A DNA stretch of 64,000 bases from a phage, in the NCBI GenBank assembly GCA_020279385.1, contig GCA_020279385.1_4762.1, one strand, 5' to 3'. Below, piece by piece: positions 6,349-40,792 of this stretch (the stretch's first letter is position 1; each line of letters begins with the position of its first letter). The notes beneath the pieces are model-generated. The model saw nothing but the letters and a program-made list of their open reading frames with translations. It ran no database searches and was not told the DNA's origin. The position numbers were made by a program, and so were the translations under genes.

Positions 6349-6377
6349 AGTATAACGGGGATTTCTCCCCGCGTCAA
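6349..6377 (-). promoter_or_regulatory. Early promoter TTGACG-[CGGGGAGAAATCCCCGT]-TATACT (palindromic spacer)
   Basis: Read on minus strand; overlaps gene 47 stop. Confidence 0.5.
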
Positions 6378-7403
6378 CTAACTTTTTGCGTTATTTACTT
6401 CGGCTAAAAGTTCATCAGAAATACGCTTGACCGCCGCAAGTTCTTCCGGTTCTAGGTTTTGTTCTTCCAGATATTCATAGACCATCTGAATAGTGCTTTT
6501 AACTTCAATAACACCTGTTTCCTGTGATGCGCTACTCTCCAGTTTATGGACCACTTTTAGCTTGTGTACAACGGCCTCTAACGCGCTTTCTAACTTAGTT
6601 AATCCATTATCAGCGACCGTTGCGATAAGACGCACACTAAGCCCTTTAAAGCGTTCTACATCGATTTTATCATCTGACGGGTAAGTGATACGCACATGAT
6701 AAGTTTTGTCATTCTGAATAAACTCTTTTTTGTGTGTATCGGTATCGAATACCCAAAACCCACGCGGATCGTTTTCGTCACCCGCCGTTAGTGTGTATGG
6801 TGCACCAATATACGTTACGTTACCGCCATCACTGATAGTATGAAAGTGACCCGAAAACACTTCACGGTATTTCTTGAGGAAGTCCGCGCTATAACCTTCG
6901 GATTTTAGCCCTTTATAGAAATAGTAACCGGACAATTCCCAATGGCCTACACAATATTCGCTGAATGAGTTTTGAATAAACTCTAAAATCTCTGATTTAT
7001 TGTCATCACAAAACCACGGGAACAGATCAAATGATACACCATCAAAGGTAACTGTTTCAGGTTTATCAATGACCTTAATGCAATCATACTGGCTTAACAC
7101 TTCACGCGGTGCGTTAGGCTGGATCTTGTTTCGTTTAAACATATCATGATTCCCGACCGTGGTATAACAAGTAATATCAGCCTCTTCCAGTAACGGGATG
7201 ACCTTAGTACGGTTAAATTTCATGGTTTCATGGGTAATTGCTTTTCGGCAATCAAACCAATCCCCTGTTTGAATCCATGTCTTAATATTATGCTCTTTGG
7301 AGTATTCAACCGCTTTCTTGATGGTATCAAGAATATACTCATGCACCCACGGATCATCGCCACCGATACCAGTATGCAGATCACCTAAAAGCAAAATTTT
7401 CAT
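6378..7403 (-). CDS. 47: Recombination nuclease subunit gp47 (SbcD/Mre11-like phosphoesterase)
   Basis: 341 aa, MKILLLGDLH...GNHD metallophosphatase motifs. Confidence 0.95.
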   Translation of the reverse strand: MKILLLGDLHTGIGGDDPWVHEYILDTIKKAVEYSKEHNIKTWIQTGDWFDCRKAITHETMKFNRTKVIPLLEEADITCYTTVGNHDMFKRNKIQPNAPREVLSQYDCIKVIDKPETVTFDGVSFDLFPWFCDDNKSEILEFIQNSFSEYCVGHWELSGYYFYKGLKSEGYSADFLKKYREVFSGHFHTISDGGNVTYIGAPYTLTAGDENDPRGFWVFDTDTHKKEFIQNDKTYHVRITYPSDDKIDVERFKGLSVRLIATVADNGLTKLESALEAVVHKLKVVHKLESSASQETGVIEVKSTIQMVYEYLEEQNLEPEELAAVKRISDELLAEVNNAKS

Positions 7404-7448
7404 AGTCTCTTCCTCTCTTCGTTTTCGATGCTCTCACTATATCACAGA

Positions 7449-7473
7449 AAAATAAAAAGGGAAACCCCTTTCA
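7449..7473 (-). terminator. Putative intrinsic terminator
   Basis: AAAGGG-GTTT-CCCTTT hairpin followed by U-rich tract on minus strand. Confidence 0.4.
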
Positions 7474-7494
7474 GAGTCTCCCTTATAAAAGCCA

Positions 7495-7782
7495 TTACAG
7501 CATACTTAATACCGTTTGCCGTGTACTGACCCACATAGCAGAAAGCAGTTCTGGCGTGTGTGGCTGTTTGTAGATATCACGTAATTTTCCGATAGCGTAG
7601 ATATACGCATCACGGTTATCATCGATGATAGCTTGTTCAGCCCACCGCTTAAGGCGTGCAATCTCTCGCGAGTTCTTACGCAAGATCTTTTCCGCTTTCT
7701 TAGCGGCTTTAGCCTCTAGTTCTGCTTGTACTTTGTCTACTTCATTCACTGCAATCTGGTCATGCTGTTCATTGCAAGTCAT
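7495..7782 (-). CDS. Hypothetical protein
   Basis: 95-aa ORF between genes 55 and 47. Confidence 0.5.
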   Translation of the reverse strand: MTCNEQHDQIAVNEVDKVQAELEAKAAKKAEKILRKNSREIARLKRWAEQAIIDDNRDAYIYAIGKLRDIYKQPHTPELLSAMWVSTRQTVLSML

Positions 7783-7783
7783 A

Positions 7784-8017
7784 TTATTTTACCTCTGGGA
7801 TATAATCAATTATTAAAGAAAATTCATCTTCTGATACATTATAGCTATGTGAGATTGTACCCGTCAAGACCTCAAGATCCGGTGATTTGATATTGCACGG
7901 ATCGATAATCACCGGAACGCCGCAATCTCTCAAAAATAATTTGGCGAAATACGGCACGAGGTCAGTTTCAAACTCTGCTTCTTCCAGCAAACGGGAAATG
8001 TTAATTTTCAATCTCAT
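7784..8017 (-). CDS. Hypothetical protein
   Basis: 77-aa ORF between genes 55 and 47. Confidence 0.45.
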
Positions 8018-8534
8018 AAAATTGGTCCAGGCTAGGCAATTCCTCAGTCAATACATCTTCAACCTTTGGCGCTTTCGGTTTATTGACCGATTCCTCGTAG
8101 TTGTTGATTTTATCGTAAATGTCCTGTATGAATGCCTCATCAGCAATCTGGCACATATCAGCGTCGCGTTCGTCATATACATGATGCACAAAATATTTGT
8201 ATTTTGCGGCTGTCGCTGTTCTCTCTTTTTTAATGCGCTGTACAAAAGCATTAAAGCACGCTTGCGTGATGTAAGCATGAGGATTTTTATACTTTGTCTC
8301 GTCAAAATTAATCAAACCCTTGACCGCCGCTTCGATTCCGTCGTCGATCATTTCTTCGCGCCATGTTTGACTATAACCAGAAAAGTTAAAACGACGTGAT
8401 AGATTTTTAGAGATTTGCATAATTGCTAGGCCGATTTGATCGCTCATTGGAACTTGCCGACCTTCTGCTGCAATTTGTTGTTTCCAACGGCAAATTTCTT
8501 CGTAAAGCTCTTTATTGTTTACATAATCAGACAC
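8001..8534 (-). CDS. 55: Late-transcription sigma factor gp55
   Basis: YVNNKEL...[49 protein letters not shown] nearly identical to T4 gp55 blocks. Confidence 0.95.
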
Positions 8535-8574
8535 TTCGCACCCTCGCTATTATTTAGGAAATAACCCTTTCGGG

Positions 8575-10044
8575 CTATTCCCCATTGCCATTATACTTTC
8601 TTTGCTTAGTTATCCACACTCTAACCATCTCTACTGATTCACCGTCAGACGGATCAAGAGTTTTTCCTTTTTTCTTCATGCGGTACTTAAATCCGTTAAA
8701 TCTTGCATTCTCTTGCTCGTTAAAGTCGAACATCTTTTTAAATGATTTTCGCCCTTTACGCTCACCGCATTCTAGCGGAATCATTCGGTCTGTTATTACA
8801 TTGGCATCAGGTAGAAACGTTTTTAGATAATCTACCAACGCCCAATCAGGAACATATAGATTAACATTCTCCTTGCTCTCGTTGTCTCTCAGGTTACAAC
8901 GCAAACATAATTGAAATGCTGGTTCCAGATAATCAGACACATGACGCGCTTTCAAAAACTCGTTTGTTGGGAGATCGCAACTATTAGCAAGACCTTTTAA
9001 AATATCAATCTCCCATCGTTGAGGGTTAAAGCTGAACATCACAGCAACATTTTTATGATGAATGTAAGAGTTAAGACCATAAGATCCGTAAGGTATCCGC
9101 TCACCAATACCATTTGTGCACGCTTCTCGGTCCCGATTAACGGTATAAATGAAGTCATCGCCACATTCATTTTTAACCATATCAACAAGACGTTCAAAGG
9201 TATTGTTTGTTTCTGACTGGTGACGCGACCAGCGTTCGGAGTCAGTCATAAGGATGATGTTAACTCTATCTGTATTTTTATACTCTTTGAAATATAGTCT
9301 GGATTCTAGCGCACTCGGAACAAAATCGCAATTTGCATAGTATCGTAGATACTTCCCGCTATATGTATCAAAGAGATTTGCACATGCTATCGTAACCTTT
9401 TTAAAGTCTCCCCACGTACCGTGTTTGTTATCGTTCAAGAAAACAATTTTCGACCCATTCTTCCGGTGTCCTTCGTTATGTTTTACCATAACGTTGATTT
9501 TCTTCTCTAATAACGCCTCATAAAGCCCTCTAAGAGAAGAATCGATCATATCAGTACCATCCTTTGCACTTTCTATCTTTTCTTTGATAGCGGCCTTCTC
9601 AGAGTCTTTTAGAACTAAGTTCTGTAGGCATTCCGATTCGTCGGCGATTGGTTCGCAATGCTTCGTGATAAGTTCAAGATTAGACTTAAACGGATACTCA
9701 TTAAATTCAACCAGTTGAGGAACTTCATCAATGTAAAGAGCATAATCACCAAACATTTTTGAACGTTCCATATTAGATAACGCTGTATGTGTAATGAATA
9801 TCACATCAGCACCGTCTTTAACTGATTGCATTATCGACGCTTGCACTGTCTTAAGGCTTCTTAGTCTGGTGCTATCAATCAAGACAGCACGACCGCCCAT
9901 TCTTTTAAACTTATTGTAAGATTGTTCACTTAAAACACGAGATGGCGAAGCAATAACCGCTTTTTCTTTTGTCTCTAGGACGTGGGAAAGTATAGCATCA
10001 GTTTTCCCCGCCGCTGGCAATGCGATTAATGTTTCAATCTTCAT
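8575..10044 (-). CDS. P-loop NTPase of unknown family (helicase/nuclease-like?)
   Basis: 489 aa; Walker A LPAAGKTD at residues 9-16, Walker B YIDEVP about residue 110; no T4 counterpart recognised. Confidence 0.75.
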   Translation of the reverse strand: MKIETLIALPAAGKTDAILSHVLETKEKAVIASPSRVLSEQSYNKFKRMGGRAVLIDSTRLRSLKTVQASIMQSVKDGADVIFITHTALSNMERSKMFGDYALYIDEVPQLVEFNEYPFKSNLELITKHCEPIADESECLQNLVLKDSEKAAIKEKIESAKDGTDMIDSSLRGLYEALLEKKINVMVKHNEGHRKNGSKIVFLNDNKHGTWGDFKKVTIACANLFDTYSGKYLRYYANCDFVPSALESRLYFKEYKNTDRVNIILMTDSERWSRHQSETNNTFERLVDMVKNECGDDFIYTVNRDREACTNGIGERIPYGSYGLNSYIHHKNVAVMFSFNPQRWEIDILKGLANSCDLPTNEFLKARHVSDYLEPAFQLCLRCNLRDNESKENVNLYVPDWALVDYLKTFLPDANVITDRMIPLECGERKGRKSFKKMFDFNEQENARFNGFKYRMKKKGKTLDPSDGESVEMVRVWITKQRKYNGNGE

Positions 10045-10331
10045 TAGAAACCCTTACGTCGTGCTTTCTGGCATTTCTTGATCATTTTATCAGAAATTTC
10101 GCGCTTAGGTGCAATCTCTTTCACACCGAAAGCACTAATGCCAAATTCAGAGAGAATATATTCAACTAACAATTCACGCACACGCGCTTTACCGATATTC
10201 ACGCCGTTATTTTTCAGATATGTCTGGCCTTCGACTTGCATCAGATCTAAATCTGCGTCGGTAATATTGATTTCTTCCATGCGCCCAAATCGAGAATAAA
10301 CCATGTGTGCGATTGCATTGTGTACTAACAT
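10044..10331 (-). CDS. Hypothetical protein
   Basis: Start reset to ATG 10331 preceded by GAGGAATATATT. Confidence 0.5.
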   Translation of the reverse strand: MLVHNAIAHMVYSRFGRMEEINITDADLDLMQVEGQTYLKNNGVNIGKARVRELLVEYILSEFGISAFGVKEIAPKREISDKMIKKCQKARRKGF

Positions 10332-10352
10332 AATATATTCCTCACTCAAGAA

Positions 10353-10460
10353 TTACTTAATGATACTTACTTTACCAGATCCATGACAATGAGCGCAACA
10401 CCCATCACCACGCAATCCTGTTCCGTTACAGTGTTTACACTTCTTCAACGGTAAAGCCAT
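10353..10460 (-). CDS. Small zinc-finger peptide (35 aa, 2x CxxCxGxG)
   Basis: MALPLKKCKHCNGTGLRGDGCCAHCHGSGKVSIIK; below ORF-track size cut-off; no clear SD. Confidence 0.3.
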   Translation of the reverse strand: MALPLKKCKHCNGTGLRGDGCCAHCHGSGKVSIIK

Positions 10461-10500
10461 TATAGCAAATAAAGCAATAATGAATACCGAAACTAAATTC

Positions 10501-10770
10501 TCAATAATCATAAATCGCCCTCAGTTCTTTATAGCCTCCAATGTGCTCGTTGTCAATGAATATCTGGGGGTATACAAACCGGAGGCTCTTTGAGTTTAGC
10601 CTCCCCGCCAGTTCTTCAATCATATCACGGTCGGGAATAATGTCAACCCCGACCTGCTTGAATACTGGTTTAAGTGTATACGGAATACCCAGATCATCCA
10701 GTAGCTTCATTGCACTAATACAACCATAACAATGATAAGCCTCTTTCGGTATACCGTATATCTCGATCAT
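10501..10770 (-). CDS. nrdH: Glutaredoxin-like protein (NrdH-like)
   Basis: 89 aa, CYGC redox motif, C-terminal YPQIFIDNEHIGGY glutaredoxin signature. Confidence 0.8.
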   Translation of the reverse strand: MIEIYGIPKEAYHCYGCISAMKLLDDLGIPYTLKPVFKQVGVDIIPDRDMIEELAGRLNSKSLRFVYPQIFIDNEHIGGYKELRAIYDY

Positions 10771-11249
10771 TTCTCAGCCTTTAATCTTTCTAGTTCTTCT
10801 TCCAGTTCCTTGATCCGTTGGTCACGTTCAAAGTCACGCTGTAACTTAGTGGCAAATACTCGCTTAAACTGATTGTAATCATCGATTTTAAACACTTCTT
10901 CTTCGCCATAGCGACGCACAGAAACTTCGTAGTTATTGAAGAATTGTTGCATCATTGCATCAGTAGTCAGTTCTGACGACACCACTTTAAAATAACGTTC
11001 TTCTGATTGCAAAAACCAGTTGTGCGCGTATTCCCGTACATCATCAACATTGCGGCAGGGGTATACCGTGCCATCAATTTCAATCACAGAAACATAATCG
11101 ATATCTGGTTCATGGCGATCAAACGCAATAACTTTAAATGGACGGTCTCCGATAAACTCTGCTATTGCATCATTTGCAACGCTAGAGTTTGCAAAATCTT
11201 CTCTCGTTTTATAATCTTTCCACTGATAGGTCATACCAACAACAAACAT
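10767..11249 (-). CDS. Paralog family A protein (MxWExGKTY family)
   Basis: Shares FANSS..A..IGDRPFKV core and C-terminal coiled coil with next three genes; start reset to ATG 11249 after GAGG. Confidence 0.6.
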   Translation of the reverse strand: MFVVGMTYQWKDYKTREDFANSSVANDAIAEFIGDRPFKVIAFDRHEPDIDYVSVIEIDGTVYPCRNVDDVREYAHNWFLQSEERYFKVVSSELTTDAMMQQFFNNYEVSVRRYGEEEVFKIDDYNQFKRVFATKLQRDFERDQRIKELEEELERLKAEK

Positions 11250-11250
11250 A

Positions 11251-11799
11251 TTACCAACCTCGCTCTTCACCAATCAAAAATTCAACTTCACGACGTTTAA
11301 TATCTTCTTGAAGGTCTTTAATCTTCTGGCGATCTTGCATGATTTCGTCCATCTTGTCAAGTGCTGCAATAAAATCATCGAAACGTTCAAAGGTTTTACC
11401 TTCATTTGCTTCGCCAAATTTAACCATTGTCAGACCATAACGACTACTAAACAGACGTTTCAACTGTCCAACGATCTTAGAATCATCGTTCACCTTTTCT
11501 TCTGGTTCTTTCACTGTTTCAACTTCACGAAAGAATTTTCTATCGAATGGACTAAAGAAATATGTTGCAGTCCAAATGTCTTTTCCTGTAGCAGTTTTCG
11601 CCGTATGATAAACACCGTCTAGCTCTATTGCATCAATCCATCCGTTACCCTCGATCTCGATGATGGTAAATGGCTTGTCACCAATAGCTGCACTAATATC
11701 GCTGTTAAGTGGAGAAAGAACACCTTCTCCGTTAGTAATAAACTCAGTTTTAGCGTTTTCATCTTTCCAAGTGTAAGTTTTACCAATTTCCCATTTCAT
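11251..11799 (-). CDS. Paralog family A protein
   Basis: MKWEIGKTYTWKD...; tandem paralog. Confidence 0.65.
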   Translation of the reverse strand: MKWEIGKTYTWKDENAKTEFITNGEGVLSPLNSDISAAIGDKPFTIIEIEGNGWIDAIELDGVYHTAKTATGKDIWTATYFFSPFDRKFFREVETVKEPEEKVNDDSKIVGQLKRLFSSRYGLTMVKFGEANEGKTFERFDDFIAALDKMDEIMQDRQKIKDLQEDIKRREVEFLIGEERGW

Positions 11800-11811
11800 A
11801 ATATATTCCCC

Positions 11812-12276
11812 TTAACCGATTTTATCAAGTTCGTTTAATGCTTTCTCTGCTTCCTGTATAGCTTGCACCCTTTCCGGCATTTTGTCAAGAAAATCTTTCA
11901 ACTCTTCAAAACTGGAGATATGACGCAAGGCGTTAGCACCGATAGCCGCATGTGATTTGCATTCAAAGCGGATTTTATAATTATCCATCGCCAACTTGAG
12001 AAGATCAATTAATTTAGATTCTTCTGGAATAATAATTTCTTCAAATCTGCTACGGTCATGATCCAGAAACCAACAAGATAGACCTACATCGGTTGAACTC
12101 ATATAAGTTCCATCATGAAGATAAACAGACCGCACGTATCCTTTTTTCGCATCAACCGACGCAACTTTAAACGGTAATCTCAGATATTTCAAATAATCAA
12201 CATCATACCATTTAAAAAATTGGTTTGCATCTTTTACATCTTTCCACGCATAGGTCTTACCAGCTTCCCATTTCAT
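11812..12276 (-). CDS. Paralog family A protein
   Basis: MKWEAGKTYAWKD... from ATG 12276. Confidence 0.6.
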   Translation of the reverse strand: MKWEAGKTYAWKDVKDANQFFKWYDVDYLKYLRLPFKVASVDAKKGYVRSVYLHDGTYMSSTDVGLSCWFLDHDRSRFEEIIIPEESKLIDLLKLAMDNYKIRFECKSHAAIGANALRHISSFEELKDFLDKMPERVQAIQEAEKALNELDKIG

Positions 12277-12280
12277 AATA

Positions 12281-12808
12281 TCATCTCTCATTTTTGATAC
12301 GTGATTCTAATTGGATCATACGGTCGCGCGTTTGTTTGTATTCTCGGATAGCACCGATCCGGCTAGGCATACCATCCAGTACGCTCTTAATACCTTCTAG
12401 GGTAGTAATTTTGGCAATGCTATTATGTAACCCCATCTTATCGATCAACTGAATGTCGTAGGCTTCCATAAGCAGACCCAGTCGTTCTAAAGTTAGGTCT
12501 TCTTCTTTTTCTTCCGAATCTGGAATCTTAGGTTCAATAGTAACTTCGGTAAAGAAACGACGCTCACCTGCCCAAAACCACACGCCGGAACAGCCAATAG
12601 GGGATTCTTTTAACGTCATAGAGTCGAAATTACTACCAATAATAGTAATTTCTCTAACATCACCATCATCGTCAAGGTCTTCTACCCTAAACGGGCGACC
12701 AGCCAACAAGTCAACAATACATCTGTTAATAGACGACGAAAATTTAGTCAGTTCGGCTTTCGACGCTTCGCATTCAATCTTGTAAGTTTTACCAACTTCC
12801 CATTCCAT
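12281..12808 (-). CDS. Paralog family A protein
   Basis: MEWEVGKTYKIE... from ATG 12808 after GAGGTG. Confidence 0.65.
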   Translation of the reverse strand: MEWEVGKTYKIECEASKAELTKFSSSINRCIVDLLAGRPFRVEDLDDDGDVREITIIGSNFDSMTLKESPIGCSGVWFWAGERRFFTEVTIEPKIPDSEEKEEDLTLERLGLLMEAYDIQLIDKMGLHNSIAKITTLEGIKSVLDGMPSRIGAIREYKQTRDRMIQLESRIKNER

Positions 12809-12818
12809 AATAATCACC

Positions 12819-13322
12819 TCAAATAATTTTCACTGGAATACTATTAACAATCTTGTATTGTACTTGATTGTCAGACCCCCGCCACGGCTTCTTCGTTGGC
12901 ATATCTTTAATATAACGACCATCTATGAACATGTCAACTGATTCTACAATTTTTCTTTGCTCATCATTCAATTGGTCAAGGGTATAACCGGACCATAGCC
13001 AAATATCTTTATTTGGCATCCATGATTTTACTTCATCGATGATCCGCTGTACACCCTTTAAATTGCGTTTATACAGTGGATCGCCACCTAAGAATGTTAG
13101 CCCCTGAATAAAATCAGGTCTAAGCAGATCCAGAATCAATCCCATTGTATCATCTGTGAATGGTTCCCCGTTCTTAGGATTGAGTAGACTGGAATTAAAG
13201 CAACCATCACATGCGTGTGAACATCCGGTAACGTAAAGGGAGACTCTCACTCCCTCACCGTTAACCATATCACAATCTTTAATATCGGCATAGCGTAGTT
13301 TGCCGTATGTATCAGAACTCAT
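12819..13322 (-). CDS. nrdG: Anaerobic ribonucleotide reductase activating protein NrdG (radical SAM)
   Basis: CSHACDGC CxxxCxxC motif, GGDPL, WRGSDNQV as in T4 NrdG. Confidence 0.9.
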   Translation of the reverse strand: MSSDTYGKLRYADIKDCDMVNGEGVRVSLYVTGCSHACDGCFNSSLLNPKNGEPFTDDTMGLILDLLRPDFIQGLTFLGGDPLYKRNLKGVQRIIDEVKSWMPNKDIWLWSGYTLDQLNDEQRKIVESVDMFIDGRYIKDMPTKKPWRGSDNQVQYKIVNSIPVKII

Positions 13323-13464
13323 ATTCAATTACCCCGAACTCGTTTACAATCTGCGCTTTATAGTAACCACCGCGAGATGCTAATAGATAAGCTGGGCTTA
13401 GGTATTCGTATTCACGGATTTCTACTTGTGCGTTTTCAGTTTCCCAAATCAGTAAAGTCCACAT
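13312..13464 (-). CDS. Possible small ORF (49 aa) overlapping nrdG start
   Basis: ATG 13464 downstream of promoter 13507-13535 and SD GGAGAA; MWTLLIWETENAQVEIREYEY... Confidence 0.25.
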   Translation of the reverse strand: MWTLLIWETENAQVEIREYEYLSPAYLLASRGGYYKAQIVNEFGVIEYEF

Positions 13465-13506
13465 GTTCGATTCTCCTGTAAAGTTGTATCTCGTCTTGAT
13501 GAATAT

Positions 13507-13535
13507 AGTATAGGGGATCTCGCGATCCCCGTCAA
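13507..13535 (-). promoter_or_regulatory. Early promoter TTGACG-[GGGATCGCGAGATCCCC]-TATACT
   Basis: Palindrome fills spacer; upstream of nrdG. Confidence 0.5.
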
Positions 13536-13539
13536 GCGT

Positions 13540-14073: not shown

Positions 14074-14084
14074 CTCACATTATT

Positions 14085-14679: not shown

Positions 14680-14685
14680 CACCCC

Positions 14686-32874: not shown

Positions 32875-32895
32875 TTTCTTAATCTCCTATATTAA

Positions 32896-33594: not shown

Positions 33595-33637
33595 AATTAA
33601 ACCCTCAGTTGATTAAGAGATTGCATCATATCATCAT

Positions 33638-33670
33638 AAAAAGAAAAAGCCAACCCTTTTTGGATTGGCT
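33638..33670 (-). terminator. Intrinsic terminator after GrcA-like gene
   Basis: GCCAATCC-AAAAA-GGGTTGGC hairpin plus UUUUUCUUUUU. Confidence 0.65.
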
Positions 33671-33680
33671 TGATGAAAAA

Positions 33681-34097
33681 TTAGAGAGATTCGGTAAAGG
33701 TACGAGCGATAACATCACGTTGCTGGTCTGGAGTCAGACTATTGAAGCGCACTGCGTAACCAGAAACGCGAATTGTAAGCTGCGGGTACTTCTCAGGATG
33801 TTCAACAGCGTCCAGCAACATTTCTCGTAACAATACGTTAACATTCAAATGCTGACCACCTTCGACAACCGGAGCACCATTATCTACAATGACAGGACGG
33901 AAGCTAGTTGTGTGCAGTGCCAGCGAATCGACGTCTTCTGCGGTGATCACATGGTCTTCTGCGAAAGTTTTACTAACAATTACTTTAGCGCCGATCAGTG
34001 CTTTCGGTTCGGATACCAGAATCATAGGCGCGAAGTGTCCACCAATAATAGTACCTTTATGCTCACCTTTCATGATTTGAATTGCTTTAAATTCCAT
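33681..34097 (-). CDS. Autonomous glycyl-radical cofactor (GrcA/YfiD-like)
   Basis: 138 aa ending ...[16 protein letters not shown], the glycyl-radical motif. Confidence 0.8.
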
Positions 34098-34232
34098 AAT
34101 TCACCTCTTATAGATCAGGACGTTCGTCATTAATTTTACCAACCAAAACACCATAGAGTTTATCAGGTTGGATTTTACGATTCTTTTTAATTGTAGCACG
34201 AAATCGACGAGCTACGCTATCTTTATTTTTCA

Positions 34233-34718
34233 TTAGTTGATACCTAAGCCAATGAAAATAGGTTGGTCTTCTACACTACCCCTTCCAACACTAAGTCGAT
34301 TCAATTCTAAAAACTGCAATACGCTGTCAGTAAATCCGCGCATGGTAGTATCTAGGATAAAGATTGTTCTGTCAAGACTACGACCTCGCCATGTGATCGG
34401 ATTCAGGAAAGTTCGGATCGACGTGCAATCTACATTTGAAATATTGACATTTTCACCACGACCGCGATCTCGGATCGTTTTGGCATGTTCCCGCGTCGTT
34501 GAAACGATAAAGACACTATAGCCTTTTCTCGTATAATGGTCATATAACTTGATTGTAGCGTCTGTATGCCCTGTCTGACGTCCTAAATTGATTGAGACAA
34601 TGGAATCTAGGTCATCAGCAAAATTGCGTCGCTTACGACGTTCTATGATGCCATTTACGGCAGATACACACGCAGCATAAATCAAATCTTTACTTTCCAA
34701 TTTTACATCAATATTCAT
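34233..34718 (-). CDS. Hypothetical protein
   Basis: 161-aa ORF. Confidence 0.5.
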   Translation of the reverse strand: MNIDVKLESKDLIYAACVSAVNGIIERRKRRNFADDLDSIVSINLGRQTGHTDATIKLYDHYTRKGYSVFIVSTTREHAKTIRDRGRGENVNISNVDCTSIRTFLNPITWRGRSLDRTIFILDTTMRGFTDSVLQFLELNRLSVGRGSVEDQPIFIGLGIN

Positions 34719-34780
34719 GGTAAAGTCTCCAGTGAACGGGGAGAGATCCTTAGATTGTCTCCCCGTTGATGGTTAATATT

Positions 34781-35170
34781 TTATTTTGGATCTGGGTATT
34801 TGCTGTGTGGTAGCTGAAAATGAACACCGTCTTTAAAACTAGTCCAATCCCCGCCCCATTCAACAGGAACACCCAATTCTCGACCAGCTTGTTTAAATGC
34901 ATCAGCGATCATGCGGTAATATTTCATGTTCCATGTATCCTTATCTTTCGGATACGCTACAACGTCAACCGCGAAACCGTGAAGATGACGAGATTTCATA
35001 GTCTTAGATTTACCTTCCGCAACATATTTCTTTTGCGTTTCTAGACTACGCACACCTTCCGTAATGCCAAAATCGACCGGAGTCAGTTCTAATGCACGAT
35101 GAACGACTTTTACCAGATCAGGATGCACACCAACAAGCCGATCTTTGCTTCTTTGAGATAATCTAAACAT
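34781..35170 (-). CDS. Peptidase M15-type cell-wall hydrolase (candidate endolysin)
   Basis: 129 aa; SRHLHGFAVDV and DGVHFQ zinc-binding motifs of M15/VanY-like peptidases; sits where T4 has e. Confidence 0.7.
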   Translation of the reverse strand: MFRLSQRSKDRLVGVHPDLVKVVHRALELTPVDFGITEGVRSLETQKKYVAEGKSKTMKSRHLHGFAVDVVAYPKDKDTWNMKYYRMIADAFKQAGRELGVPVEWGGDWTSFKDGVHFQLPHSKYPDPK

Positions 35171-35198
35171 TATTCACCCCCTTTGTGAGTGATAATAT

Positions 35199-35390
35199 TT
35201 AGATTCCGGCGATCCTGCATAGAGTTCTTGTATTAGCACCAATAAGGATAGCATTAACGACAACCATTCCCCAATCAACCCACGGATTATTATAAATGCT
35301 AAATCCGTTTGCTAGGCCAAATACAAGCATTCCGGTACACATACTCAGAGCAATAATCAACATCACGGTAAAACCAAATGCAAATCTCAT
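35199..35390 (-). CDS. Small hydrophobic protein
   Basis: 63 aa, predicted transmembrane. Confidence 0.4.
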   Translation of the reverse strand: MRFAFGFTVMLIIALSMCTGMLVFGLANGFSIYNNPWVDWGMVVVNAILIGANTRTLCRIAGI

Positions 35391-35391
35391 A

Positions 35392-35658
35392 TTATTTTCC
35401 TTTTCTCTGTTTACGTTTATAAAAGTAATACATTACCTCATCGCGTCCGGTGATCCAACATGCTATGGCAGTAAACAGGTTTACAATTCCCAACACACCT
35501 ACGGATGCGGCACTATCAACGGACATAGGAACAGTAAAGGCCATTGCTAGCATAGCAACGCCACAAATGACATTAAGCACCATTATAATAAGACCGAAGA
35601 AAACCATTGTCAATCCTCCGACACAAGAAAACCAACAATCACGCCAGTGATAAGACAT
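35392..35658 (-). CDS. Small hydrophobic protein
   Basis: 88 aa, predicted transmembrane. Confidence 0.4.
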   Translation of the reverse strand: MSYHWRDCWFSCVGGLTMVFFGLIIMVLNVICGVAMLAMAFTVPMSVDSAASVGVLGIVNLFTAIACWITGRDEVMYYFYKRKQRKGK

Positions 35659-35801
35659 GATGCGCCGCTAATCAGACAACCCGCACCAAGTGATTCCCAC
35701 CAGATCAGAGAAGCGACAATAACACAGAATCCCCATACTACCGCAATCACAACATAGGCAAGGGTCGCCCAAAACATATATTTGTTCATAATAAACCCCA
35801 T
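35610..35801 (-). CDS. Small hydrophobic protein
   Basis: 63 aa; start uncertain. Confidence 0.35.
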   Translation of the reverse strand: MGFIMNKYMFWATLAYVVIAVVWGFCVIVASLIWWESLGAGCLISGASCLITGVIVGFLVSED

Positions 35802-35974
35802 TCACCAAACAAATAAGAAAAAAGCCATATCAACAGAAACGAGGCAATTGATCCGGCAAGCAAAATGATATTAGAGAATCCGCCGTCTATCCAGGCGACA
35901 AAACAGAATACACCAGTATAGAAGCATAAACCCAGTACAAAGCATACTATAAGCAACCATAGACAAAACGCCAT
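35786..35974 (-). CDS. Small hydrophobic protein
   Basis: 62 aa. Confidence 0.4.
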   Translation of the reverse strand: MAFCLWLLIVCFVLGLCFYTGVFCFVAWIDGGFSNIILLAGSIASFLLIWLFSYLFGEWGLL

Positions 35975-36035
35975 AGAAAGCCCTCCAGTGAGCTAATTTA
36001 GTGCGGGTAGTACATTACCCTACCCATATTGTTAA

Positions 36036-36194
36036 TCATCGCAGAGCTTCTTCTAGCGCGATCCCAAACCATCCACAAACAACGCCCATACAGACAGCTA
36101 CAAGAAGATTCATTCTCTCTTTAGGGATCATTGCAATCATAACAACAACCATACAGAAAGCCATTACCATTGAAGTTAACATTTGTTCAACCAT
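36036..36194 (-). CDS. Small hydrophobic protein (52 aa)
   Basis: ATG 36194 after AAAGGTG; MVEQMLTSMVMAFCMVVVMIAMIPK...; below ORF-track cut-off. Confidence 0.3.
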   Translation of the reverse strand: MVEQMLTSMVMAFCMVVVMIAMIPKERMNLLVAVCMGVVCGWFGIALEEALR

Positions 36195-36196
36195 TA

Positions 36197-36535
36197 TCAC
36201 ACCTTTAAAGTCATAGACGCATAAACATTAATGCCAGGCCAGTTAGGATCGCAATTATACTCAACATCCCACAAATAAAGCGGTTTAGATGTATCAGCCA
36301 AGTTTTTAAAATCTTCTACCCACATTTCAAGGCTATATGATGGATAAACTAGGCTATCATATCCGCCGTAACGTTGGCCTACTGGTCGGTCAGTAAAAAC
36401 TACATCAAGATCCGGTAATTCTTTTTCAAGGATAACCACCAGCGCATAAATCAGACGGTCTTCCTTGTTACGCTGCCGAAGGACCGTTGTCAGTTGGTTT
36501 TTCTGGTTCACTAGCAAGCACCTCCACATTTTCAC
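36197..36535 (-). CDS. Hypothetical protein
   Basis: 112-aa ORF. Confidence 0.45.
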   Translation of the reverse strand: MKMWRCLLVNQKNQLTTVLRQRNKEDRLIYALVVILEKELPDLDVVFTDRPVGQRYGGYDSLVYPSYSLEMWVEDFKNLADTSKPLYLWDVEYNCDPNWPGINVYASMTLKV

Positions 36536-36788
36536 AGAATGAAATTTTCACAGACACAATTTTACCATAAGTGAAGAATGAATATACATTATCGATATAT
36601 TCAACGTCACCTACAATCACATCAAACTGCGGATCAGCAACCGCCGCAACATATTCTACCAGTTCATCAAGAGAATGCAACTTAATTTCATCAATTCGGC
36701 TGTATTTGGTTGCATCTTTAATTTTAAAACCACGTTCTTTCAGTTTGTCAATCAGAATTTCACGCGGAGTTTCAAACAGTTTGCTCAT
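36468..36788 (-). CDS. Hypothetical protein
   Basis: 106-aa ORF. Confidence 0.45.
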   Translation of the reverse strand: MSKLFETPREILIDKLKERGFKIKDATKYSRIDEIKLHSLDELVEYVAAVADPQFDVIVGDVEYIDNVYSFFTYGKIVSVKISFCENVEVLASEPEKPTDNGPSAA

Positions 36789-36810
36789 AGTATAATCCTC
36801 ACATAGTTAA

Positions 36811-37005
36811 TCAATGGTCAATAATCTTGCACATTATAACAGAAAGAACAAAGACCGCAACCCACATATAGATCCCAGCAATCAATGCAATTTCAATATC
36901 ACAATATCCAAGATATACAACAGGAATAAAAACAAACATACAGACCAGCGCAAAGAAACTAGCAAAGGCGCTCGAAAATCCGATGGCAGTATTACTAATC
37001 TTCAT
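36811..37005 (-). CDS. Small hydrophobic protein
   Basis: 64 aa. Confidence 0.4.
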   Translation of the reverse strand: MKISNTAIGFSSAFASFFALVCMFVFIPVVYLGYCDIEIALIAGIYMWVAVFVLSVIMCKIIDH

Positions 37006-37006
37006 G

Positions 37007-37189
37007 TTAACAATCCTCGCGGCTTAAGTCAACAGCAATTGCATACAGAATAATGAATATACTAGCAGATCCGAGAATCAACGCACCGTCACATTTTGAA
37101 ACTCGCTCATCAAAATGTAACATTATCCATCCGAGGATGTTAAAGGCGCAGACCGCGCCTATGTTCGCTAACCAATTAATCTTTTTCAT
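37007..37189 (-). CDS. Small hydrophobic protein
   Basis: 60 aa. Confidence 0.4.
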   Translation of the reverse strand: MKKINWLANIGAVCAFNILGWIMLHFDERVSKCDGALILGSASIFIILYAIAVDLSREDC

Positions 37190-37197
37190 AATATACC

Positions 37198-37524
37198 TTA
37201 GAAAGAAACAGTTTTCAAGAAATCCAGATTTTCAGTACCGAAAACAGAAAAGTAGTGTTTTCCTTTTTCGGTTTTAGAGAAAGCGATTGTCTTCTCTACA
37301 TGGTGACGGAAGCCAGACAGACGATCACCCAGGTCAAGGCGGCAAGCGTAAGTAGTGCCGTTTTCGAAAGTAACCTCGATTTGAGTTTTGTCATATTCGC
37401 TTTCATAGGCTTTTGCTGCCGCTTCCAGTGCTTTACGCTCGAAGTCTTCGAAGTGGAATACTTCGTTTGCGTTAGCGAATACAGAAGATTCAGAGAAGAT
37501 AACTTTAACAGATACTGGTTTCAT
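37198..37524 (-). CDS. Hypothetical protein
   Basis: 108 aa; RBS TAAGGAGTATCAAA. Confidence 0.55.
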   Translation of the reverse strand: MKPVSVKVIFSESSVFANANEVFHFEDFERKALEAAAKAYESEYDKTQIEVTFENGTTYACRLDLGDRLSGFRHHVEKTIAFSKTEKGKHYFSVFGTENLDFLKTVSF

Positions 37525-37621
37525 TTTGATACTCCTTAGTGTGTTTCGTTTCGATGAGGTAACTATACTCTAGCCACCTCATTAAGTTTTAACAAAAAGT
37601 GCTATTTTCTAGTTTAATGTA

Positions 37622-37765
37622 TCAATCCCAGACAATCCAAACCTGTATAGAAGACTTTGCATCTGGGTTATCTTTAAGGATTTTATCAATGGCATTGTTT
37701 AGCTTCTCTCTTGTTTTGAACAAACCAACAATACAACCCATTGCTTGTAATTTAAAAACTGGCAT
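37622..37765 (-). CDS. Small ORF (47 aa)
   Basis: Promoter 37799-37827, SD GGGGGT, ATG 37765; MPVFKLQAMGCIVGLFK... Confidence 0.3.
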   Translation of the reverse strand: MPVFKLQAMGCIVGLFKTREKLNNAIDKILKDNPDAKSSIQVWIVWD

Positions 37766-37798
37766 TTTACCCCCATATCTTCTCGTTTCGATGGGTGT

Positions 37799-37827
37799 AT
37801 TATGCTATACACCATCTCGTATGTCAA
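37799..37827 (-). promoter_or_regulatory. Early promoter TTGACA-N17-CATAAT
   Basis: GGTGTAT/ATACACC palindrome around -10. Confidence 0.5.
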
Positions 37828-37834
37828 CAACTTT

Positions 37835-38023
37835 TTAGTCTTTTTTCATAATTTCTAGAGCAGTTTCTACAGCACCTTTCCAACCCTCCCACATAATGGA
37901 CATAGTAATGAAGTTAAAGCACCCACAGGAATCAACCTTTTTAGAGATAAACCATTCTACAAACGCTTCGCTCATACCATGCTCTTTAGCGGATTCGCGT
38001 AATTGTTCAATTTGGTCTTCCAT
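37835..38023 (-). CDS. Hypothetical protein
   Basis: 62 aa; RBS GAGGTGATACT. Confidence 0.45.
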   Translation of the reverse strand: MEDQIEQLRESAKEHGMSEAFVEWFISKKVDSCGCFNFITMSIMWEGWKGAVETALEIMKKD

Positions 38024-38045
38024 AGTATCACCTCAACAATTAACG

Positions 38046-38240
38046 TTATTCAAACTCAAACGGTTTATTCAACCTACTGTAAAAGTACATATAACAAGCA
38101 TAGTTTTGTTTTGGCTGTACCGTATCAGATAGACACGCTTTTACAGCCTCGCGGTCCGATGGATCTACACCCTCAGCTTTAAGTAATGCTAAAATCTGGT
38201 TATAGCGTACTCTTAGTTGTACTAATGGTTTATCCCCCAT
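38046..38240 (-). CDS. Hypothetical protein
   Basis: 64 aa. Confidence 0.45.
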   Translation of the reverse strand: MGDKPLVQLRVRYNQILALLKAEGVDPSDREAVKACLSDTVQPKQNYACYMYFYSRLNKPFEFE

Positions 38241-38249
38241 ATTACCCCC

Positions 38250-38471
38250 TTATAGTTGATCAGCGATGTAAGCGTGACAAGCGCGGAGTTTCATTAATGC
38301 ACTACCTTTCACTTCGCCTACGATGTTCATAACTTCTAAGCGGTCGGATGGATTCATCTTAGAGCACCAGATCTGGTTAGCCAATTCCAGTTTACTCATA
38401 TTTGGTTCCATCTCAAACAGTTCGCGCTCAAAGTCGATAATTTCTTTTGCTGCGTCTTTAAAGTTAATCAT
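38250..38471 (-). CDS. Hypothetical protein
   Basis: 73 aa; GGAGAATCAAA RBS; promoter 38501-38529. Confidence 0.5.
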   Translation of the reverse strand: MINFKDAAKEIIDFERELFEMEPNMSKLELANQIWCSKMNPSDRLEVMNIVGEVKGSALMKLRACHAYIADQL

Positions 38472-38500
38472 TTTGATTCTCCCGTTTCGTTGATGGTTGT

Positions 38501-38529
38501 ATTGTAGGGGAGTTATCCTCCCCTGTCAA
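38501..38529 (-). promoter_or_regulatory. Early promoter TTGACA-[GGGGAGGATAACTCCCC]-TACAAT
   Basis: Palindromic spacer. Confidence 0.5.
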
Positions 38530-38537
38530 CACTTTTA

Positions 38538-38723
38538 TCAGAAATATGCAATATAGTTTGCCAGTCCTACAGAGTCATCATTCGGCATTGCTTTTACTGC
38601 CAGTTCAAACCCTGCTTCAACTTTCTGTTTAGCGGATTCTTCGTTATAACCCCAGATTACCAGAATAGCTACTACGTTTTCTTTGCTTACTTCTTTCAGT
38701 GCTTTAGTGATGCGACGTGCCAT
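38538..38723 (-). CDS. Hypothetical protein
   Basis: 61 aa; GGAGAATCAAATT RBS; promoter 38770-38798. Confidence 0.5.
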   Translation of the reverse strand: MARRITKALKEVSKENVVAILVIWGYNEESAKQKVEAGFELAVKAMPNDDSVGLANYIAYF

Positions 38724-38769
38724 AATTTGATTCTCCGTTTAAGAAAGTGTGTTTCGTTTCGATGGGTGT

Positions 38770-38798
38770 ATTATGCTATAGGCCGGATCTGGTGTCAA
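38770..38798 (-). promoter_or_regulatory. Early promoter TTGACA-N17-CATAAT
   Basis: Directly downstream of terminator 38822-38851. Confidence 0.5.
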
Positions 38799-38821
38799 CA
38801 ACTTTTTTAAAAAAATTTTAG

Positions 38822-38851
38822 GCAATAAAAAAGCCACTCCGAAGAGTGGCT
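38822..38851 (-). terminator. Intrinsic terminator
   Basis: GCCACTC-TTCG-GAGTGGC hairpin plus UUUUUUAUU. Confidence 0.7.
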
Positions 38852-39001
38852 TATAGGGAAGGTAGCGAATCTTCCTTGTCTCCAACCTGCTAGCGGCCTA
38901 GCAAGTGAATGCTTTAGCGTACCGGATAGCCCACATACGCTGTAATAAATGCGGCTAGGTGACGTCCAAATCATTCTAACCGCGCTGTCTTTAGTTCACT
39001 A

Positions 39002-39220
39002 TTATTTATATCGCTTTCTCTCGCGACGTTTTTTATCTTCTTCCTTGATAGAGTTAAATGCATCAAAAAGACACATGACACTAATAATAAACATAACCGT
39101 ATTTTCTACGATATCCCACGGCTTCGCATCAGTACAGATCCCCCAAACGGTAAGAAATGCAAATAAGGCAGAAGAGATCACAAGCATGATACTTGCTAAG
39201 ATATAAAAAGTCATTTTCAT
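39002..39220 (-). CDS. Small hydrophobic protein
   Basis: 72 aa. Confidence 0.4.
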   Translation of the reverse strand: MKMTFYILASIMLVISSALFAFLTVWGICTDAKPWDIVENTVMFIISVMCLFDAFNSIKEEDKKRRERKRYK

Positions 39221-39411
39221 GGTTTTACCTCAATTCTTCGATATTCATCACACATCCACGCAGTAAGCAAGAATCCCAACACATAAGCAACAAAATACGT
39301 TAATGCTTCTTCTGGTTCGGTGCTATGCGTCATCATCAGACTAGCGAGAAAGGTCTTAACAATTACATTTAAAATAATTAGCCACGCAAATAATTTCATC
39401 GTTTGCCCCAT
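39217..39411 (-). CDS. Small hydrophobic protein
   Basis: 64 aa. Confidence 0.4.
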   Translation of the reverse strand: MGQTMKLFAWLIILNVIVKTFLASLMMTHSTEPEEALTYFVAYVLGFLLTAWMCDEYRRIEVKP

Positions 39412-39635
39412 TTCGGTCGAGTCTTTTCAAACTTATACATTCCGTAACAATCTCGAATCATCCACGTAACAAGAGCACCAGTCAACACAGACAATACACA
39501 GAAGAAGTAAAACGGTCCGGTTGCATTATCAACATGAGCAAGCCAGGTAAAGAAAACACATGCTAAGAATGTAAAGATCATCATAAAGCACAAGAAAGCG
39601 AAATATTTTATACTACTCATAGCGCCACCATACAA
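39396..39635 (-). CDS. Small hydrophobic protein
   Basis: 79 aa. Confidence 0.4.
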   Translation of the reverse strand: MYGGAMSSIKYFAFLCFMMIFTFLACVFFTWLAHVDNATGPFYFFCVLSVLTGALVTWMIRDCYGMYKFEKTRPKWGKR

Positions 39636-39723
39636 AAGATCATAAGAAAACCCAACGCAATAAGAATTGCATCAAATTTAGTGAACTCCGGTCCACCTAT
39701 CAACATCATTCGTTCTATTTCGT

Positions 39724-39966
39724 TCATAGCGTACAAAGCCATTTAAAAGCACCACATAAAGCGAGCAGAATACTAGGTATAAACGAGACCATAACAAGTT
39801 TGCAAAAATCATCTAAGGTAACACCGGAATAGCTACCTACTGTAACAACACCGATCATCAGACACAGAAAGAAAACAAATGCAATCATAAACAAAGTATT
39901 GCTAAACAGTTTAGTGATCATTAGACACCCCACGACGATCAATTTCAAAAACTTTTTTATCATCAA
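39724..39966 (-). CDS. Small hydrophobic protein
   Basis: 80 aa; start uncertain. Confidence 0.4.
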   Translation of the reverse strand: MMIKKFLKLIVVGCLMITKLFSNTLFMIAFVFFLCLMIGVVTVGSYSGVTLDDFCKLVMVSFIPSILLALCGAFKWLCTL

Positions 39967-40114
39967 CGAAGCATGTCACAACTGCCTCGTTGACTTCCGC
40001 AAATTGTTGTGTCACCCACTTAAGGTCAGAGCGAAACAATGTTCTATTAATAACAAATGTTTTACCGCTCTTATCCTTACCCATAAATTTTGCTTTAACC
40101 ATATCCAATTCCAT
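39911..40114 (-). CDS. Hypothetical protein
   Basis: 67 aa. Confidence 0.4.
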   Translation of the reverse strand: MELDMVKAKFMGKDKSGKTFVINRTLFRSDLKWVTQQFAEVNEAVVTCFVDDKKVFEIDRRGVSNDH

Positions 40115-40123
40115 ATTATCACC

Positions 40124-40282
40124 TTATTTGCTAATCGCTAAACCCAATCCGAAGAGAGCACCCGATGCTACAGTATACCCGAAAGTTTCAAAGGCAGTAA
40201 AGATATCTAAGCCACCAGCTAACAGAGTTGCAGTAAACAGAGTACCAGCTACGAACATAAAAGTTTTACCGATGAATTTCAT
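40124..40282 (-). CDS. Small hydrophobic protein (52 aa)
   Basis: Promoter 40314-40342, SD GGAGAATCAAA, ATG 40282; MKFIGKTFMFVAGTLF...; below ORF-track cut-off. Confidence 0.35.
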   Translation of the reverse strand: MKFIGKTFMFVAGTLFTATLLAGGLDIFTAFETFGYTVASGALFGLGLAISK

Positions 40283-40313
40283 TTTGATTCTCCTTTCGTT
40301 TGTTTGTGGGGGT

Positions 40314-40342
40314 ATCTTACTACCCCCGTTTCATGTTGTCAA
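40314..40342 (-). promoter_or_regulatory. Early promoter TTGACA-N17-TAAGAT with GGGGGTA/TACCCCC palindrome
   Basis: Upstream of 40124-40282. Confidence 0.45.
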
Positions 40343-40348
40343 CTATTT

Positions 40349-40726
40349 TTAAGAATATTTTACTTCGTCTACAATGTCTTTCATGACATTGATTTCCATT
40401 CCGGTCAGAACACGTTGGAACATGTGCTGCACATACGCTTTCAGGTATTCATTTGATGGCTTGCTATCGAAAGTCTTTTTAGTGTAGTAGTCATCACCGA
40501 AAGCTACTGTAATTATATTTTCGTCGTCGTTCCAAGCGATATAAGCAAATTTGCCGTTATCCCAGAAGCGAGCACTAATTGCTACTTTTGTTGAATCGAA
40601 TCCTACTTCGCTGTGAGATTCAAGAACTACTTGCGTGCCAGTTTCTTTATGAATGTAGTAGCGGGATACTAAGTCAAAGTTACGGGTGTAGTGACATTCG
40701 AATTTATCTTTAAACATCATCATCAT
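40349..40726 (-). CDS. Hypothetical protein
   Basis: 125 aa; promoter 40764-40792. Confidence 0.55.
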   Translation of the reverse strand: MMMMFKDKFECHYTRNFDLVSRYYIHKETGTQVVLESHSEVGFDSTKVAISARFWDNGKFAYIAWNDDENIITVAFGDDYYTKKTFDSKPSNEYLKAYVQHMFQRVLTGMEINVMKDIVDEVKYS

Positions 40727-40763
40727 TTTGATTCTCCTAAGTGTGTTTCGTTTCTATGTGTGC

Positions 40764-40792
40764 ATTATGCTATAGTCGTTTATGGTTGTCAA
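40764..40792 (-). promoter_or_regulatory. Early promoter TTGACA-N17-CATAAT
   Basis: Directly downstream of terminator 40798-40828. Confidence 0.5.

Follow-up and report, generated by a model that had tools for sequence, protein, structure and literature searches.

GC-rich stem-loops within early promoters of an RB49-like phage: probable action on read-through transcripts

What does a GC-rich palindrome do inside an early phage promoter? The question is raised by a 64,000-nucleotide stretch of phage DNA (GenBank assembly GCA_020279385.1, contig GCA_020279385.1_4762.1; referred to below as the window), whose minus strand carries, between positions 6349 and 40792, a series of near-consensus early promoters. 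In many of them a palindrome lies in the spacer between the -35 and -10 hexamers or encloses the -10 hexamer itself. On sequence grounds, we identify the elements as promoter-early stem-loops (PeSLs), a family already described in RB49-like phages, and consider it likely that the hairpin acts as a single strand, on transcripts that read through from the upstream gene.

The promoters were scored with a scan that demanded at least five matches out of six in the -35 hexamer and at least 10 out of 12 in total. Seventeen minus-strand promoters of the σ70 type (TTGACA, a spacer of 16-18 nt, a TATAAT-like -10) were found in the 6349-40792 range, matching the consensus at 10-12 of 12 positions; the first runs from 6377 to 6349 and the last from 40792 to 40764. 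All promoter sequences quoted in a preliminary description of this DNA were recovered at their coordinates. Promoter-like sites numbered 76 and 99 in the two halves of the window, versus 56±7.5 and 60±7.6 in shuffled sequences, and the top scorers were nearly all on the minus strand. The preliminary description had ascribed a GC-rich palindrome to at least 17 promoters. The number of promoters stands; a significant GC-rich hairpin is present at 12 of them, the promoter at 26547 is marginal, and four others have no palindrome. The hairpin occupies the spacer at five promoters (6377, 13535, 23956, 26254 and 38529) and encloses the -10 at seven (17182, 18416, 19326, 23280, 32437, 40342 and 37827). 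The third proposed palindrome class, GGTGTAT..ATACACC around CATAAT, is a true palindrome only at 37827 and weakly so at 26547; at the other CATAAT promoters, the ACACCC/GCACAC sequence is a conserved discriminator rather than a palindrome arm. The four promoters that lack a palindrome (14679, 27791, 38798 and 40792) each follow a canonical terminator, with a hairpin and a T-tract, located 12-35 nt upstream of the -35, which bears out the terminator-promoter punctuation proposed earlier. Over the whole window, hairpins were assigned to the spacer at five promoters, to the -10 at seven (plus the marginal one), upstream of the promoter at five and downstream at one.

The excess of palindromes was confirmed to be highly non-random. 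Out of 47 strong minus-strand promoter hits in positions 1..46000, 12 fold at -10 kcal/mol or below in a 39-nt core, while 200 trials in which the spacer and downstream bases were permuted yielded 1.4 such hairpins on average and six at most. Only 4.8% of random same-strand 39-mers reach -10 kcal/mol (binomial P ~1.5e-6). Folding z-scores range from -1.8 to -4.6 at the 12 sites, and the score at 26547 is -0.5. When an AT-rich upstream region and a downstream Shine-Dalgarno sequence and ATG were also required, 22 likely real promoters were retained; 17 of these have a hairpin of -9 kcal/mol or below within -60..+35, compared to 11% of random 125-mers.

The anatomy of these elements is that of a known family. 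Arbiol et al. (Arbiol, Comeau, Kutateladze, Adamia and Krisch, 2010, Genome Biol Evol 2:140; PMC2839356) reported ca. 51-52 PeSLs per RB49 or phi1 genome, in each of which an AT-rich region containing the upstream gene's stop codon is combined with a σ70 consensus promoter and a stable, often polyG/polyC stem-loop, and which ends in the next gene's Shine-Dalgarno sequence and start codon. In that study, most stem-loops were located between the -35 and -10 or overlapped the -10, and the remainder lay upstream, over the -35 or downstream; classes one and two of the preliminary description are the first two of these positional subclasses. The window itself is, as judged by sequence identity, from an RB49-like Krischvirus coliphage: its 20000-40000 segment matched 66 phage records in a megablast search, and 55 of these were 95-99% identical, all of them RB49-like T4-type coliphages of the genus Krischvirus (KMB43, GEC-3S, JSE, RB49, Phi1 and others). 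The window elements share a common leader and discriminator, have an upstream AT content of 0.6-0.95, as is typical of PeSLs, and place the ATG 51-75 nt from the -35. Phage group, anatomy, stem-loop positions and GGGG..CCCC stems are the same as in the published PeSLs of RB49 and phi1, which are likewise found in front of small genes of unknown function in hyperplastic regions and are likewise tied to differences in gene content. We see no essential difference between the two sets.

The correspondence extends to copies that have been studied experimentally. Positions 23956-23887 match RB49 PeSL211/210 (TTGACAGGGGATCACGTATCCCCTATACTacacacatcaaaacgaaacacactttctta) over ca. 70 nt, though the two loci are not orthologous. 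When the stem-loop of PeSL211/210 was placed between a strong promoter and lacZ, expression was lowered about as much as by the rrnB T1 terminator (PMC2839356). RB49 PeSL206/205 (TTGACAGGGGATCGGTGATCCCCTATAAT), which from our reading of the RB49 intergenic region belongs to the spacer class, gave ca. 13,000 Miller units as a promoter fusion, and most clones of such promoters acquired mutations in the -35 or -10, a result that the authors took to mean that the native promoters are too strong to be tolerated (PMC2839356). The window promoter at 13535 shares its GGGGATC..GATCCCC family with PeSL206/205 and PeSL210/209 of RB49. Given that the family has been described and that one window copy is identical in sequence to a tested one, the element must be regarded as already known. 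What is added here to the published picture is quantitative: embedded hairpins and upstream terminators exclude each other, hairpin placement goes with the distance to the stop codon, embedded hairpins lack U-tracts, and stems are better conserved than loops.

To place the hairpins relative to other signals, a census was made of the complete genome of a relative, OZ035808.1. Among its 58 likely early promoters, 25 carry an embedded hairpin, 9 carry an upstream one, none carry both and 24 carry neither (Fisher p=0.007). This mutual exclusivity suggests that embedded hairpins and canonical terminators are functional substitutes, and the pattern fits an embedded hairpin doing the same job as the upstream terminators, i.e., marking the 3' end of the upstream gene's transcript. 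The distance to the preceding gene varies along with hairpin position. At embedded-hairpin promoters of the window, the upstream stop codon lies -4 to +8 nt from the -35, compared to 41-43 nt at three of the four upstream-terminator promoters; it is 19 nt at the marginal 26547. At the fourth upstream-terminator promoter, 38798, the computed gap of 8 nt is measured from a small ORF that is probably spurious, and the true gap is larger. The TGA stop codon is part of the TTGACA -35 itself at 17182 (17179-17181) and 18416 (18413-18415), and at 6377 and 32437 the upstream stop codon is immediately adjacent to the -35. Gene end and promoter are thus compacted to an extreme. Overall, the hairpins lie 6-25 nt after upstream stop codons.

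The embedded hairpins resemble canonical intrinsic (Rho-independent) terminators in stem and loop style but lack a U-tract and reside inside the next promoter. Four-nucleotide loops of embedded hairpins are of the GNRA type in five of six unique stem-loops (GAAA, GCGA, GGGA), and canonical terminators of the same window have GAAA, GAGA, GCAA or UUCG loops. The arrangement of a canonical terminator followed by a promoter is matched exactly by the four in-range elements and by one plus-strand element (GNRA or UUCG loop, T-tract, -35 within 12-35 nt).

With the start site placed ca. 7 nt after the -10, we infer that the whole hairpin, with both arms, precedes +1 in the spacer and -10-overlap classes alike. 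A start at this distance agrees with the C-rich -3..-1 region that Nolan et al. noted. Since both arms precede its own +1, an embedded hairpin cannot form in the mRNA of its own cassette.

Taken together, we consider it probable that the elements are PeSL cassettes in which a single-strand hairpin acts on read-through transcripts. The cassette, ca. 100 bp long and typical of RB49/phi1-type phages, opens with an AT-rich (UP-like) stretch that contains the upstream stop codon and continues with a near-consensus σ70 promoter, used by the unmodified host RNA polymerase right after infection. The promoter is accompanied by the GC-rich stem-loop and followed by a conserved C/A-rich leader; the GGAG Shine-Dalgarno sequence and start codon that close the cassette belong to a small early gene. 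The hairpin would form only in the nascent RNA of polymerases that read through from the upstream gene, where it would attenuate or terminate transcription, or at least provide a stable 3' end. With read-through curbed in this way, each small early gene would be expressed mainly from its own promoter. Where ca. 45 nt or more of intergenic space is available, a normal hairpin and U-tract terminator would precede the -35; with a stop codon that touches or runs into the -35, the hairpin would be built into the spacer or enclose the -10. In addition, the cassettes, being repeated and conserved, would provide patches of homology through which related phages gain, lose and exchange small genes. Published experiments have shown the strength of the promoters and the effect of a spacer-class stem-loop on downstream expression; that the -10-overlap class acts alike, and that the effect is true termination, we infer. 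The preliminary description had offered structure in read-through transcripts as an alternative, and that alternative agrees with the published interpretation of PeSLs and with the tests made here.

Alignments of orthologues at 16 sites, from up to 8 relatives (RB49, GEC-3S, JK32, SSG23, Makalu_003, two unannotated assemblies and one IMG/VR contig), are informative about what is maintained in the cassette. The palindromes are kept at the orthologous promoters of 8 relatives, where their absence would have spoken against the preliminary description. No column out of 96 is variable in the -35 and one out of 96 is variable in the -10; stems vary in 11 of 185 columns, loops in 9 of 35 and the rest of the spacer in 24 of 115, compared to 15% of columns in the 50 nt upstream and 9% in the 50 nt downstream. 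Stem variation is found mostly in peripheral pairs of weak folds, and pairing is broken nowhere in the core GC stems. The four core-stem changes all convert U-A to U.G (at 19326 in GEC-3S, in two adjacent pairs at 23280, and at 26547 in the IMG/VR contig), a number too small to carry weight. Across 9 genomes, there are 28 unique stems, which fall into ca. 10 sequence families; arm length is 5-11 bp and loop length 3-10 nt.

Several observations weigh against a hairpin that acts by termination in read-through RNA. Embedded hairpins are followed by only 0-4 T in the next 8 nt (0-2 in the -10-overlap class), and efficient intrinsic termination is therefore not expected from their sequence; upstream-class hairpins are followed by 5-7 T. 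In OZ035808.1, the mean number of T in the 8 nt after the stem is 5.7 for the upstream class versus 1.8 for the embedded class (Mann-Whitney p=6e-4). The embedded GGGG...CCCC hairpins, lacking U-tracts, may not be ordinary terminators. An asymmetry of wobble pairs between strands would have been proof of an RNA hairpin, but G.U was found five times and A.C twice among the 28 unique stems, a difference that is not significant. The stems all share 5'-GGG...CCC-3' polarity, which could reflect recognition by a protein. The published reporter assay concerned one stem-loop, of the spacer class, and does not tell termination apart from destabilised RNA or altered translation (PMC2839356). No transcript 3'-end data for any Krischvirus were found in the literature. 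The embedded hairpins may terminate, attenuate or only protect 3' ends. Termination by collision with a promoter-bound polymerase was considered and set aside on geometry alone, for an incoming polymerase would meet the bound one well before transcribing the hairpin.

The alternative that survives best, and which we regard as possible, places the function of the hairpin mainly at the 3' end of the upstream message. Polycistronic read-through RNA would be cleaved downstream, for instance at the next gene's GGAG Shine-Dalgarno sequence by RegB, and the hairpin would block 3'-to-5' exonucleases and so stabilise each upstream cistron separately. The lack of U-tracts and the location of hairpins 6-25 nt past stop codons are both in its favor, as is the presence of regB in the window (ca. 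31617-32036). The sequence GGAGAATCAA occurs in the Shine-Dalgarno region of nine PeSL-driven genes in the window, against 0.23 expected (minus strand, at 19269, 23887, 26199, 26482, 27735, 38473, 38727, 40284 and 40728), and always precedes such genes. It matches the RegB/S1 consensus GGAGRAYARAA (PMC1702504) at 10 of 11 positions, and on the strength of this match early mRNAs that carry it are probably RegB targets; position 8 of the consensus is C here, where A is favoured. The main objection comes from the published reporter, in which the stem-loop reduced expression of downstream lacZ in cells without RegB. An effect of this kind points to action on read-through or on downstream RNA, and not only to protection of upstream RNA.

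A primary role in DNA recombination is less probable, and we think it unlikely. The hairpin, extruded or present in single-stranded DNA at forks, would be targeted by a structure- or sequence-specific phage protein or would promote template switching, giving rise to PeSL-to-PeSL recombination and mini-circles, and any transcriptional effect would be secondary. The crossover of an RB49 mini-circle was mapped inside a loop, Arbiol et al. speculated on a GGGG..CCCC-binding protein, and the stem-loops block a sequencing polymerase on single-stranded DNA (PMC2839356). Differences in gene content between relatives start at PeSLs, and their loops and spacers differ by multi-base blocks. Yet T4-type recombination needs only short homology, which is already supplied by 70-100-bp cassettes; at 7-10 bp, the stems are on the short side for extrusion as a cruciform; neither the GNRA loops nor the mutual exclusion with upstream terminators is accounted for; and selection for evolvability is second-order. 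A role in recombination, as proposed by Arbiol et al. (PMC2839356), is compatible with action on read-through transcripts and does not exclude it.

Two kinds of observations in our alignments concern such exchange. Among phages that are 95-97% identical, loops and non-stem spacer bases differ by replacement of multi-base blocks at 23956, 13535, 32437, 27791 and 38798, with stems and hexamers invariant at these sites; the loop at 23956 has four variants in nine genomes. The replacements suggest exchange between paralogous PeSLs or template switching at hairpins. Secondly, the segment 37525-37834 (minus strand), between genes 55.3 and ORF113c, contains the PeSL at 37827, an ORF of ca. 47 amino acids (ATG at 37764), and a second, degenerate PeSL at ca. 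37610-37560 (GAGGT..TATAGT..ACCTC, then catcgaaacgaaacacac). RB49 has a single PeSL at the same position (compared piece 32359-32437), and by this comparison the 37827 cassette is a clear example of PeSL-bounded gene gain or loss. The element at 26254 is present in one of 8 relatives.

We hold it improbable that a structure-specific phage protein recognises the embedded hairpins, as RNA or as extruded or single-stranded DNA, and thereby couples the shut-off of early promoters in a phage that lacks MotA to PeSL recombination and mini-circle formation.

The operator model, in which the palindromes are duplex-DNA sites for a dimeric phage or host regulator that overlap the polymerase footprint and serve to shut off early promoters, is very unlikely to be correct. 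Like the operators of lambda OR/OL or LexA boxes, the palindromes are inverted repeats over the -35/-10 region; the GGGG..CCCC core recurs, and conserved arms around a variable center are also typical of operators. Nolan et al. found neither a motA gene nor middle promoters in RB49-type phages, so exit from the early phase calls for an explanation. However, the ca. 10 arm sequences are unrelated; arms measure 5-11 bp, loops measure 3-10 nt, and half-sites are not at a constant spacing. Where the palindrome sits relative to the -35 and -10 depends on the class, and certain promoters lack one altogether. An embedded hairpin and an upstream RNA terminator exclude each other. The tetraloops are mostly GNRA, a kind that stabilises hairpins, and substitutions that break the symmetry but keep U.G pairing are tolerated. 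Furthermore, in uninfected E. coli, where no phage protein is present, lacZ expression was reduced downstream of a stem-loop identical to that at 23956. The dimeric regulator of the preliminary description is therefore unsupported: PeSLs have no common half-site, spacing or position, and their hairpin needs no phage protein to act. No cognate repressor is known for PeSLs, and no candidate was searched for. Lastly, that the palindromes are chance pairing without function, or a by-product of promoter sequence preferences such as a C-rich discriminator, can be dismissed almost entirely: the 3' arm of the -10-overlap class (ACTCCC, ACCCCC, ACACCC) does coincide with a discriminator conserved even in hairpin-less promoters and pairing at 26547 is no better than in shuffles, but 12 hairpins were seen where 1.4 were expected, the complementary 5' arms are conserved among relatives while adjacent spacer bases vary in 21% of columns, and the discriminator is not involved in spacer-class hairpins at all.

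The individual elements, all on the minus strand unless noted, are as follows. The spacer class comprises 6349-6377 (TTGACG-17-TATACT; hairpin GCGGGGAgaaaTCCCCGT at 6355-6372, z -2.9), where the abutting stop codon of the upstream gene is at 6378-6380; 13507-13535 (TTGACG-17-TATACT; hairpin GGGGATCgcgaGATCCCC at 13513-13530, z -2.7); 23928-23956 (TTGACA-17-TATACT; hairpin AGGGGATcacgtATCCCCT at 23933-23951, z -1.8), whose promoter, hairpin and leader match RB49 PeSL211/210; 26227-26254 (TTGACA-16-TATAAT; hairpin ACGGGGAgaaaTCCCCGT at 26232-26249, z -3.0), the locus with a counterpart in a single relative; and 38501-38529 (TTGACA-17-TACAAT; hairpin AGGGGAGgataaCTCCCCT at 38506-38524, z -4.6).

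The -10-overlap class includes 17149-17182 (TTGACA-16-TATAAT; GGGAGTATgctataATACTCCC at 17149-17170, z -4.5) and 18382-18416 (TTGACA-17-TAAGAT; GGGAGTAgtaagaTACTCCC at 18382-18401, z -3.2), the two promoters with the upstream TGA inside the -35; 19290-19326 (TTGACA-17-TAAAAT; ATGGGAGTAgtaaaaTACTCCCAT at 19290-19313, z -4.4); 23244-23280 (TTGACA-17-TATAAT; ATGCGGTTATcatataATGACCGCAT at 23244-23269, z -3.6), with one U.G pair that alternates with U-A in relatives; 32402-32437 (TTGACA-18-TAATAT; GGGGGTAgtaataTACCCCC at 32402-32421, z -1.9), with the abutting upstream stop codon; 37794-37827 (TTGACA-17-CATAAT; GGTGTATagcataATACACC at 37794-37813, z -2.7), which heads the extra cassette of ca. 47 amino acids absent from RB49; and 40308-40342 (TTGACA-17-TAAGAT; GGGGGTAgtaagaTACCCCC at 40308-40327, z -3.2). 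The marginal early promoter, 26514-26547 (TTGACA-17-CATAAT), has GGTGT..ACACC pairing of 5 bp with an 11-nt loop (z -0.5, not significant).

In the upstream-terminator class, 14652-14717 consists of a terminator at 14696-14717 (GAAA loop, T-tract) and a TTGACA-16-TATAAT promoter at 14652-14679 with a weak, AT-rich spacer palindrome; 27763-27830, of a terminator at 27805-27830 (GAAA loop, T-tract) and TTGACA-17-CATAAT at 27763-27791; 38770-38852, of a terminator at 38831-38852 (UUCG loop, T-tract) and TTGACA-17-CATAAT at 38770-38798; and 40764-40829, of a terminator at 40809-40829 (T-tract) and TTGACA-17-CATAAT at 40764-40792. The last three promoters are without a palindrome. Two further elements lie outside the 6349-40792 range: a PeSL of the downstream subclass at 1542-1598 (TTGACT-17-TATAAT at 1570-1598, then GTGGGGAGTGtaaaTACTCCCCGT at 1542-1565), and, on the plus strand at 54939-55007, a terminator (54939-54966; GAGA loop, T-rich tail) followed by a consensus TTGACA-16-TATAAT promoter (54980-55007).

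At 7440-7484 and 33625-33671 (minus strand), canonical terminators are immediately followed by extended -10-like motifs (TGATATAGT and TGATATGAT, respectively) and the usual catcgaaaac-type leader, with no good -35; these may be PeSLs of the subclass in which the stem-loop lies over the -35, missed by a consensus scan. A perfect 9-bp hairpin at 43308-43328 (AAGCCCGTCaatGACGGGCTT) lies between convergent genes, is followed on either strand by a T-rich or AT-rich tail and resembles a terminator that works in both directions; its counterpart is annotated on both strands in GEC-3S. The GATC (Dam) site is ca. four-fold enriched in early-promoter spacers of OZ035808.1 (20 observed versus 4.6 expected in 58 promoters); window examples are at 13513-13530, 23933-23951, 26535-26541, 32421-32428 and 38785-38792. 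Genome-wide, this Dam-encoding phage has 929 GATC sites versus ca. 587 expected from base composition. Dam methylation was rejected as a selected feature, as the excess stems from the GGGGATC..GATCCCC family and GATC sites outside stems are not conserved among orthologues (31590, 32437, 26547).

According to the RB49 annotation, the window has gene 47 on one side and the baseplate genes on the other. Its minus strand carries early and small genes up to ca. 46 kb, late genes occupy the plus strand beyond, and the genes that neighbor the promoters are annotated as small hypothetical proteins. In a search for more distant relatives, all GenBank matches were to Krischvirus (94-97% identity) and a scan of IMG/VR with RegB returned a single locus; no Rfam family was matched at gathering thresholds in the whole window.

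The PeSL concept was extended to T4/PST and KVP40/nt-1 by Comeau et al. (2014; PMC4122927). The elements in those phages and at T-even internal-protein loci are also composite terminator/promoter repeats that flank variable genes and mediate their shuffling. The authors regard these elements as analogues and not homologues. Their promoters are T4-type early promoters, and their stems are weaker and AT-richer, without polyG/polyC. Arbiol et al. compared PeSLs to morons and integron cassettes, in which a small accessory gene likewise moves together with its own expression signals. In PeSLs, unlike in those systems, the regulatory repeat is itself the substrate of recombination, and no integrase or attC-type site is involved.

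In PeSLs, the functions of a terminator and a promoter are packed into ca. 30 bp between the tightly spaced small early genes of a T4-type phage. As repeated regulatory cassettes, these elements can act as portable linkers for the swapping of accessory genes, which bears on the modular evolution of phages and on their adaptation to the host.

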